From assembly GCF_044324875.1 (NCBI RefSeq), contig NZ_CP172185.1: a DNA stretch of 64,000 bases, one strand, 5' to 3'. Within the stretch, counting starts at the first letter, position 1. Every line of letters begins with the position of its first letter. Under the pieces are notes generated by a model. That model had not been told where the DNA came from. It ran no database searches and saw only the letters and a program-made list of their open reading frames with translations. Made by a program: the position numbers and the translations under genes. Origin of the DNA: Escherichia coli (GTDB lineage: Bacteria > Pseudomonadota > Gammaproteobacteria > Enterobacterales > Enterobacteriaceae). This document shows positions 2,327 through 2,610 of the stretch, piece after piece.

Positions 2327-2610
2327 AAGTTTTTTGATCTTACCCAGCAACAACAGCGTTATGGTGCACCATGCCTGACTGATGAACTGCGTGCTCAGGG
2401 TTACCACTTCAACGTAAAACCGTGGCAGCAGGGCCGGACTGAACAAACGGCTCAGGACATTATCGGTAGGTGACACACTGGTTGTCTGCAAACTGAACCT
2501 ACTGGGGCGCAGTATGCGGCATCTTGCCGTGCTGTTGGAGGAGCTGTGCGAACGTGGTATTAACTTTCGTGCTCTGACTCTACCAATATTTGCCCAACAA
2601 TGAGGGGACG
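2327..2610 (+). pseudogene. pinH: Decayed serine-recombinase (Pin/Gin/Hin DNA-invertase family) fragment, with an overlapping out-of-frame stretch resembling an IS3-family transposase
   Basis: Frame 0 from about 2418 reads [50 protein letters not shown], matching the central region of Gin/Pin/Hin invertases; no start, N-terminal catalytic region or C-terminal helix-turn-helix. A second frame (2327-2473) reads [20 protein letters not shown], reminiscent of IS3-family transposase. Both are truncated by stops. Confidence 0.5.

Follow-up and report, generated by a model that had tools for sequence, protein, structure and literature searches.

A remnant of IS3 abutting the pinH invertase pseudogene between ypjCB and ypjA of Escherichia coli

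Introduction

Serine DNA invertases of the Pin/Gin/Hin type include Pin of e14, Gin of Mu, Hin, Cin and the enzymes of the P2 family, as Fels-2-like and other P2-family phages also encode Pin-type invertases. An intact gene of this kind has ~184 codons, with a start codon, an N-terminal catalytic serine (Ser9/10) and a C-terminal helix-turn-helix (HTH), and it is accompanied by an invertible segment and crossover sites. The insertion sequence IS3, of 1,258 bp, has terminal inverted repeats at both ends (IRL and IRR) and an orfA-orfB arrangement with a programmed -1 frameshift and a DDE (rve) domain. Decayed invertase genes are also known: K-12 carries the pseudogene pinH (b2648), for which our literature search found nothing relevant. 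A third point of comparison is ssrA, the tmRNA gene, since partial copies of its 3' end can mark the far side of foreign DNA, as does psaA of CP4-57 in K-12.

Here we describe a stretch of relic DNA between ypjCB and ypjA of E. coli. Positions are those of the window, by which we mean the whole stretch of 64,000 nucleotides that was analyzed. Compared with Pin (e14), Gin (Mu), Hin, Cin and the P2-family/Fels-2 invertases, the relic is 72% identical in amino acids and 83% in nucleotides to PinE residues 42 to 91, but it keeps only 50 of the ~184 codons. It has lost the start codon along with the catalytic serine and the HTH, and neither crossover sites nor an invertible segment accompany it. 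From IS3 it retains, in the same orientation as the invertase piece, the left terminus and orfB nt 531 to 622, whereas ~92% of the element (orfA, the frameshift site, the DDE domain and the IRR) is gone, which makes transposition impossible. We put at roughly 90% the probability that positions 2335 to 2578 are an inert pseudogene stretch in which a gene fragment of IS3 lies side by side with one of a phage-type DNA invertase. As the invertase part is already known as K-12 pinH, the relic is in itself ordinary; its IS3 part carries no annotation.

Results

The gene order around the relic is ileY (just upstream of the window start), ypjCB, the relic, ypjA (EhaD; RefSeq start at 2995) and ssrA, and the features between ypjCB and ypjA are collected in Table 1. 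Over positions 2100 to 2990, identity is 99.9% with strain 042 and 99.8% with many further E. coli genomes. A sequence-only reading of this DNA had taken 2327 to 2610 for scars of past mobile-element genes. This holds, as both peptides that it quoted are present in the translated forward frames of 2250 to 2700, and searches returned DNA matches to IS3 (E = 9e-21) and pinE (E = 8e-34) and a Pfam Resolvase match (E = 2.3e-8). Its description of two overlapping frames needs qualification: the open frames do overlap, but the homologous DNA segments abut at 2430/2431 without overlapping. The IS3 and invertase segments are not in frame with each other.

Table 1. Features of the interval between ypjCB and ypjA, in window coordinates
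Feature	Position	Strand	Basis
Fels-2-type ssrA-downstream arm with intrinsic terminator	2180-2236	-	96.5% identity over 57 nt
Displaced ssrA 3'-end remnant plus spacer, degenerate	2237-2262	-	Seven-allele alignment with Fels-2-like attL
72-nt spacer, pseudo-ssrA remnant to IS3 left end	2263-2334	strandless	Matches only orthologous loci in E. coli genomes
Spurious 122-aa ORF antisense to the relics	2315-2683	-	No Pfam match, broken in alleles
IS3 left terminal inverted-repeat tip, TGATCTTACCCAGCAA = IS3 nt 1-16	2335-2350	+	16/16 exact match
IS3 orfB internal fragment (IS3 nt ~531/544-622), ~26 codons, HTH-like N-terminal region	2340-2430	+	87% nt identity
Pin/Gin/Hin-type serine DNA invertase internal fragment, 149 nt	2430-2578	+	pinE nt 124-272, codons 42-91
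37-nt hypervariable spacer, invertase end to autotransporter upstream module	2579-2615	strandless	83% mean pairwise identity
ypjA (EhaD) upstream/leader module, right boundary, outside the relic	2616-2994	+	Paralogous to ycgV-like autotransporter/ymgJ upstream region

Pairwise alignment of the invertase fragment with pinE gives 123 identical nucleotides out of 149 (83%). Among 5,426 complete E. coli genomes (28 Gb), pinE and other genes labeled "recombinase family" match it at 80 to 84% nucleotide identity, with E values down to that of the pinE match, and identity to phage invertase genes reaches 85%. In translation (frame 2250+3n), 38 of 53 residues are identical to PinE residues 39 to 91 (72%). 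The Pfam Resolvase family (PF00239) is matched with 34.7 bits (cut-off, 23.3), over profile positions 48 to 100 of 145 only, so that homology to the DNA invertase subfamily of serine recombinases extends to a partial catalytic domain only. The match to the central region of Gin, Pin and Hin had been put at about 60 residues; while the homology is real, its true length is ~50 to 53 residues.

What is missing from the invertase fragment was foreseen correctly: the Pfam span, the PinE alignment and the allele translations agree that there is no start codon, no catalytic-serine region and no C-terminal HTH. The frame opens after a TAA at 2415 to 2417, has no ATG, GTG or TTG start at its head and stays open for 61 codons. 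Homology begins at PinE residues 39 to 42, leaving no intact ORF with a start and the N-terminal catalytic serine, and it goes no further than PinE residue 91 (nt 272; window position 2578); Pfam gives no HTH match. Within the fragment, the conserved WKLDRLGRS motif reads CKLNLLGRS, the D-R pair being replaced by N-L. Inverted repeats bounding an invertible segment, which the sequence-only reading had thought worth seeking nearby, did not turn up, as no convincing ones flank the relic in positions 1 to 9000. The crossover core AAACCNNGGTTT, allowing at most one mismatch, has no match within 9 kb and a single one in the 64 kb, below chance expectation.

The suggested link to K-12 pinH is borne out by position and by sequence. 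K-12 b2648 maps to window positions 2418 to 2657, in the same place between ypjCB and ypjA, and the relic region of 321 nt is 91% identical in K-12-type genomes, collinear and syntenic, which makes pinH the orthologue of the invertase piece. In every genome inspected, RefSeq labels that piece [quoted passage not shown] The K-12 pinH annotation follows the open frame and so runs ~80 nt past the end of the real invertase homology, and K-12 has neither the IS3 remnant nor the pseudo-ssrA/terminator remnant marked. We considered whether the 240-nt pinH feature might be the sum of the IS3 part and the invertase part (91 + 149), which its mapped position rules out. The relic is 77% identical to the Fels-2 invertase and 83 to 85% identical to other invertases, and it is thus no closer to Fels-2.

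The second frame had been read as part of an IS3-family transposase. This is real, and the element is IS3 itself: against IS3 nt 531 to 622, 80 of 92 nt are identical, with a 1-nt deletion near 2417, IS3 was also the match in the search of the 5,426 complete genomes, and in translation (frame 2252+3n) 21 of 26 residues are identical to IS3 OrfB. The Pfam HTH_21 match of this frame is weak (E = 0.004) and below the cut-off. The exact left terminus of IS3, which the sequence-only reading missed, is also part of the relic. The tip starts at the terminal TG (nt 1) and is 18 nt long in K-12-type alleles; it marks where the left boundary of the old IS3 insertion is preserved. There is no IRR, and of the orfA-orfB pair, the programmed -1 frameshift and the DDE (rve) domain, only the orfB codons listed in Table 1 remain. 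None of the annotations inspected mentions the IS3 remnant.

A closer look at the joints shows short repeats at both. The IRL tip and the internal IS3 piece overlap in an 8/11 microhomology (TTACCCAGCAA versus TTACCCGGTCA), and they are joined by an internal deletion of ~525 nt at the microhomology TTACCC-G--A. The IS3/invertase junction at 2430/2431 lies within an A(A/G)GCC microhomology. Both junctions look like what illegitimate deletion would leave.

To place the scar in time, its junctions were aligned in eight copies, from the window, 042, K-12, O157:H7, O121, WP4-S18, FORC_042 and AR_0006. The IS3 start, the IS3/invertase junction and the invertase end are the same in all eight, with no insertions or deletions at the junctions, and alleles about 8 to 11% diverged carry identical junctions. 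The relic is present at a coverage of at least 80% in 3,039 of the 5,426 complete E. coli genomes. Mean pairwise identity is ~92% in both fragments, and variable sites fall over the three codon positions as 8/10/8 in the invertase frame, 6/4/5 in the IS3 frame and 27/22/26 in the antisense ORF, a neutral pattern. Stops and frameshifts interrupt the IS3 frame in six of the seven distinct alleles (all but the window/042 type), and they vary from allele to allele. Identical junctions in all examined alleles point to a single, long-ago origin. With K-12, O121, 042 and O157:H7 belonging, according to their established assignments, to phylogroups A, B1, D and E, respectively, the scar arose once, before the split of these phylogroups, and has drifted neutrally since.

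Outside E. coli, an exact-pattern scan of 100,044 GTDB species-representative genomes, which diverged copies in other Escherichia species could escape, found the IS3/invertase junction only in two contaminant contigs and in chance matches. The two contigs are DEQI01000374.1 of a "Planococcaceae" metagenome-assembled genome, ~90% identical to the E. coli locus and consistent with a K-12-type allele, and NODE_86 of "Terrisporobacter mayombei" (539 nt; coverage, 0.74), also ~90% identical and K-12-type-like. Both appear to be E. coli contamination.

About 100 to 150 nt left of the relic lies an arm with a core copy of ssrA, annotated neither in the window nor in K-12 (NC_000913.3, ~2,783,460 to 2,783,531). 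In a minority of genomes, the Fels-2-like lysogens, ssrA is followed directly on its 3' side by 57 nt that match the arm at the identity given in Table 1. A probe made of 41 nt of prophage-side DNA, the arm and the ssrA 3' end matched 230 genomes at a coverage of at least 80%, and in both probe-matching genomes that were inspected a P2-family (Fels-2-like) prophage adjoins ssrA. The same arm lies inside the annotated attP of Felsduovirus Fels2 and is also found in SopEPhi, RE2010, SEN8, Cartapus, 500465-1 and several Klebsiella phages. It contains a terminator hairpin on the minus strand (2233 to 2206), with a 12-bp stem and a T-run (-24.1 kcal/mol; z = -4.2).

In K-12-type alleles the arm is followed by an identical 8-nt spacer and then by a decayed copy of the last ~23 nt of ssrA, where homology stops. 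These alleles read GATTTATT plus TGGTGG-GCTGGCAGTGACTGAA, against TGGTGGAGCTGGCGGGAGTTGAA at the ssrA 3' end. The K-12 allele matches the Fels-2-like attL at 68 of 75 nt, running into the ssrA 3' end (E = 2e-22 over the BLAST-aligned part). The core copy is conserved at ~19 of 23 nt in K-12-type alleles and degenerate in the 042-type allele of the window; in this patch (2237 to 2262) the identity of the window to K-12 drops to 41%, while both flanks are ~90% identical or more. Fels-2-like lysogens have a 46-nt core, whereas only ~23 nt is recognizable in the scar.

The displaced copy is on the same strand as the real ssrA (7730 to 8092, minus), ~5.5 kb away, as would be expected if DNA inserted at ssrA had left a displaced 3' end of the gene on its far side. 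In this it would resemble psaA of CP4-57 in K-12, which is likewise a partial 3'-end copy of ssrA in the orientation of the gene and lies distal to foreign DNA. The scar at 2180 to 2262 differs from psaA in being separate, older, unannotated, ~5.5 kb from ssrA and associated with no integrase. Immediately after psaA, at the right end of CP4-57, K-12 has the very sequence found after ssrA in the window. This puts the window in the CP4-57-empty state, and the scar at 2180 to 2262 would be a second and older one. Between 2263 and 7729 no integrase gene or remnant is annotated or recognizable, the relic and ypjA with its leader being all that lies there.

At the other end, 160 nt free of any island or prophage separate the ypjA stop from ssrA, and K-12 psaA and its flank match the ypjA-ssrA junction of the window (7570 to 8092). 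The sequence-only reading had called the region recombinationally active. This fits the wider ssrA-ileY interval, a variable integration hot spot that differs strongly between strains, but not the scar itself, which has identical junctions and is old and static.

The two spacers that flank the relic were compared with the int-side arm of Fels-2-like phages and with e14 and showed no similarity to either. The left one is the DNA into which IS3 inserted; the right one has no match besides its own locus. Beyond it, positions 2616 to 2965 are 86 to 87.5% identical to the ymgJ/autotransporter locus, and as this paralogy starts at 2616, the ypjA unit with its leader begins at ~2616. We also note that the 5' leader of ypjA (2820 to 2994) is 100% identical between the window and K-12, next to a relic that differs by 5 to 11%, and that within the paralogous ycgV-like/ymgJ upstream region, too, this is where conservation is highest. 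A 40-aa ORF annotated there by RefSeq (2811 to 2930) is argued against as protein coding, since all five of its differences from the paralogue are nonsynonymous. For the same reason, the conservation of the leader looks like constraint at the DNA or RNA level, possibly as a regulatory leader common to these autotransporters. In O157:H7 strain TR01, the ypjA upstream region (extracted locus 1167 to 1352; window ~2596 to 2851) is annotated ymgJ, and its 40-aa ORF product, WP_001131446.1, recurs at the ycgV-like locus of another strain, a sign that the upstream regions of the two autotransporters may have exchanged sequence by gene conversion.

On the other side of the relic, ypjCB (607 to 2061; 484 aa; DUF5507/DUF5508; GC content, 28 to 35%) is intact in the window. 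In 042 a nonsense codon interrupts it, K-12 has it as separate ypjC and ypjB, and other strains carry frameshifts in it. The idea that YpjCB is cargo of a Fels-2-like phage beside the att arm is unsupported, as tblastn against 50,697 phage records gave no match.

Could the relic have been put to new use as noncoding regulatory DNA, either in the upstream control of ypjA or as the source of a minus-strand transcript that stops at the hairpin at 2233 to 2206? The relic does lie ~420 nt upstream of the ypjA start, a strong minus-strand terminator is found just downstream of it, and there are three promoter-like sites on the minus strand (2733 to 2704, 2701 to 2673 and 2488 to 2459). However, three is the number expected from shuffled sequence (mean, 3.0), the terminator is accounted for by its ssrA/Fels-2-arm ancestry, and the relic is among the less conserved intergenic parts, its mean identity being ~92% compared with 98% in the ypjA leader. 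A regulatory RNA finds no Rfam family above threshold: in positions 2000 to 3050, the only hit was BjrC68, over the terminator hairpin, which we dismissed at 21 bits against a gathering score of 39. We regard regulatory use of the relic as unlikely.

Still less probable is that the minus-strand ORF, either in its full length of 122 aa or as the 53-aa RefSeq protein WP_000075277.1, encodes a genuine small protein. Four alleles (window, 042, K-12 and WP4) do have the ORF open, RefSeq annotates its last 53 codons as a product in strain 042, and the terminator lies downstream of it on the same strand. Yet it is interrupted in three of seven distinct alleles, by a premature stop in O121 and by frameshifts in AR_0006 and O157, and its C terminus is altered in FORC_042. 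Furthermore, third codon positions are not enriched among its variable sites, Pfam gives no match, and the RefSeq annotations of K-12 and five other genomes inspected do not include it. The earlier judgment that this ORF is not a gene thus stands.

That a truncated invertase peptide is still made, for instance as a dominant-negative partner of other Pin-type invertases, is the least probable reading, for although the frame is open in the window and partly keeps the region near the dimer interface, it has no start at its head, its replacements at conserved positions differ among alleles, it is frameshifted in AR_0006, and its variable sites are spread evenly over codon positions (8/10/8).

Discussion

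The relic is thus the known pinH pseudogene together with an IS3 remnant that no annotation records; it was fixed long ago, is drifting and is predicted to be nonfunctional. Neither recombination nor transposition is to be expected of it, because it lacks the start codon, the catalytic serine, the HTH, the DDE domain, the right IS end and the crossover sites and has N-L in place of the conserved D-R.

The history that we propose has a modest balance of probability on its side, both for the order of events and for an origin in an element integrated at ssrA. A Pin/Gin/Hin-type serine invertase gene of phage type would once have been present here, most likely within an element that had integrated at ssrA close by. 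Next, to the left of the invertase gene and in the same orientation, a copy of IS3 would have inserted. Three deletions, all illegitimate, may have followed. The first, inside IS3, would have joined nt ~16 to 18 to nt ~531 to 544 at a short repeat; the second would have joined IS3 nt 622 to invertase nt 124 at the A(A/G)GCC microhomology; and the third would have removed everything after invertase nt 272. Left over from these would be the IS3 tip, ~26 orfB codons and invertase codons 42 to 91.

Where the relic came from bears on ypjA as well. The position and strand of the displaced ssrA copy give somewhat better than even support to the relic and ypjA lying in an ancient ssrA-integrated element that has lost its integrase and other genes. 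Whether the entire block from the pseudo-ssrA (2180 to 2262) to ssrA (7730), including the IS3 and invertase scars and ypjA/EhaD, is such a decayed element is an evenly balanced question.

The relic by itself has little biological weight, being a dead scar with no predicted activity, the invertase part of which is already annotated. It is of use for annotation: the K-12 pinH feature overshoots the real homology, the adjoining IS3 remnant and the second pseudo-ssrA/terminator scar are unannotated, and the 53-aa "hypothetical protein" that some RefSeq genomes list opposite the relic is almost certainly an artifact. Fixed, neutral and unique in its junctions, the relic also serves as a marker that dates the ypjCB-pinH-ypjA order to before the A/B1/D/E split, and together with the scars it would also record the serial occupation of the ssrA site by mobile elements. 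If the block between the two ssrA copies is indeed a decayed element, then ypjA would have been delivered or captured by it, the retained Fels-2-type phage terminator arm would imply serial occupancy of ssrA, and E. coli, including K-12, would carry a second, unannotated ssrA att scar that is older than CP4-57.
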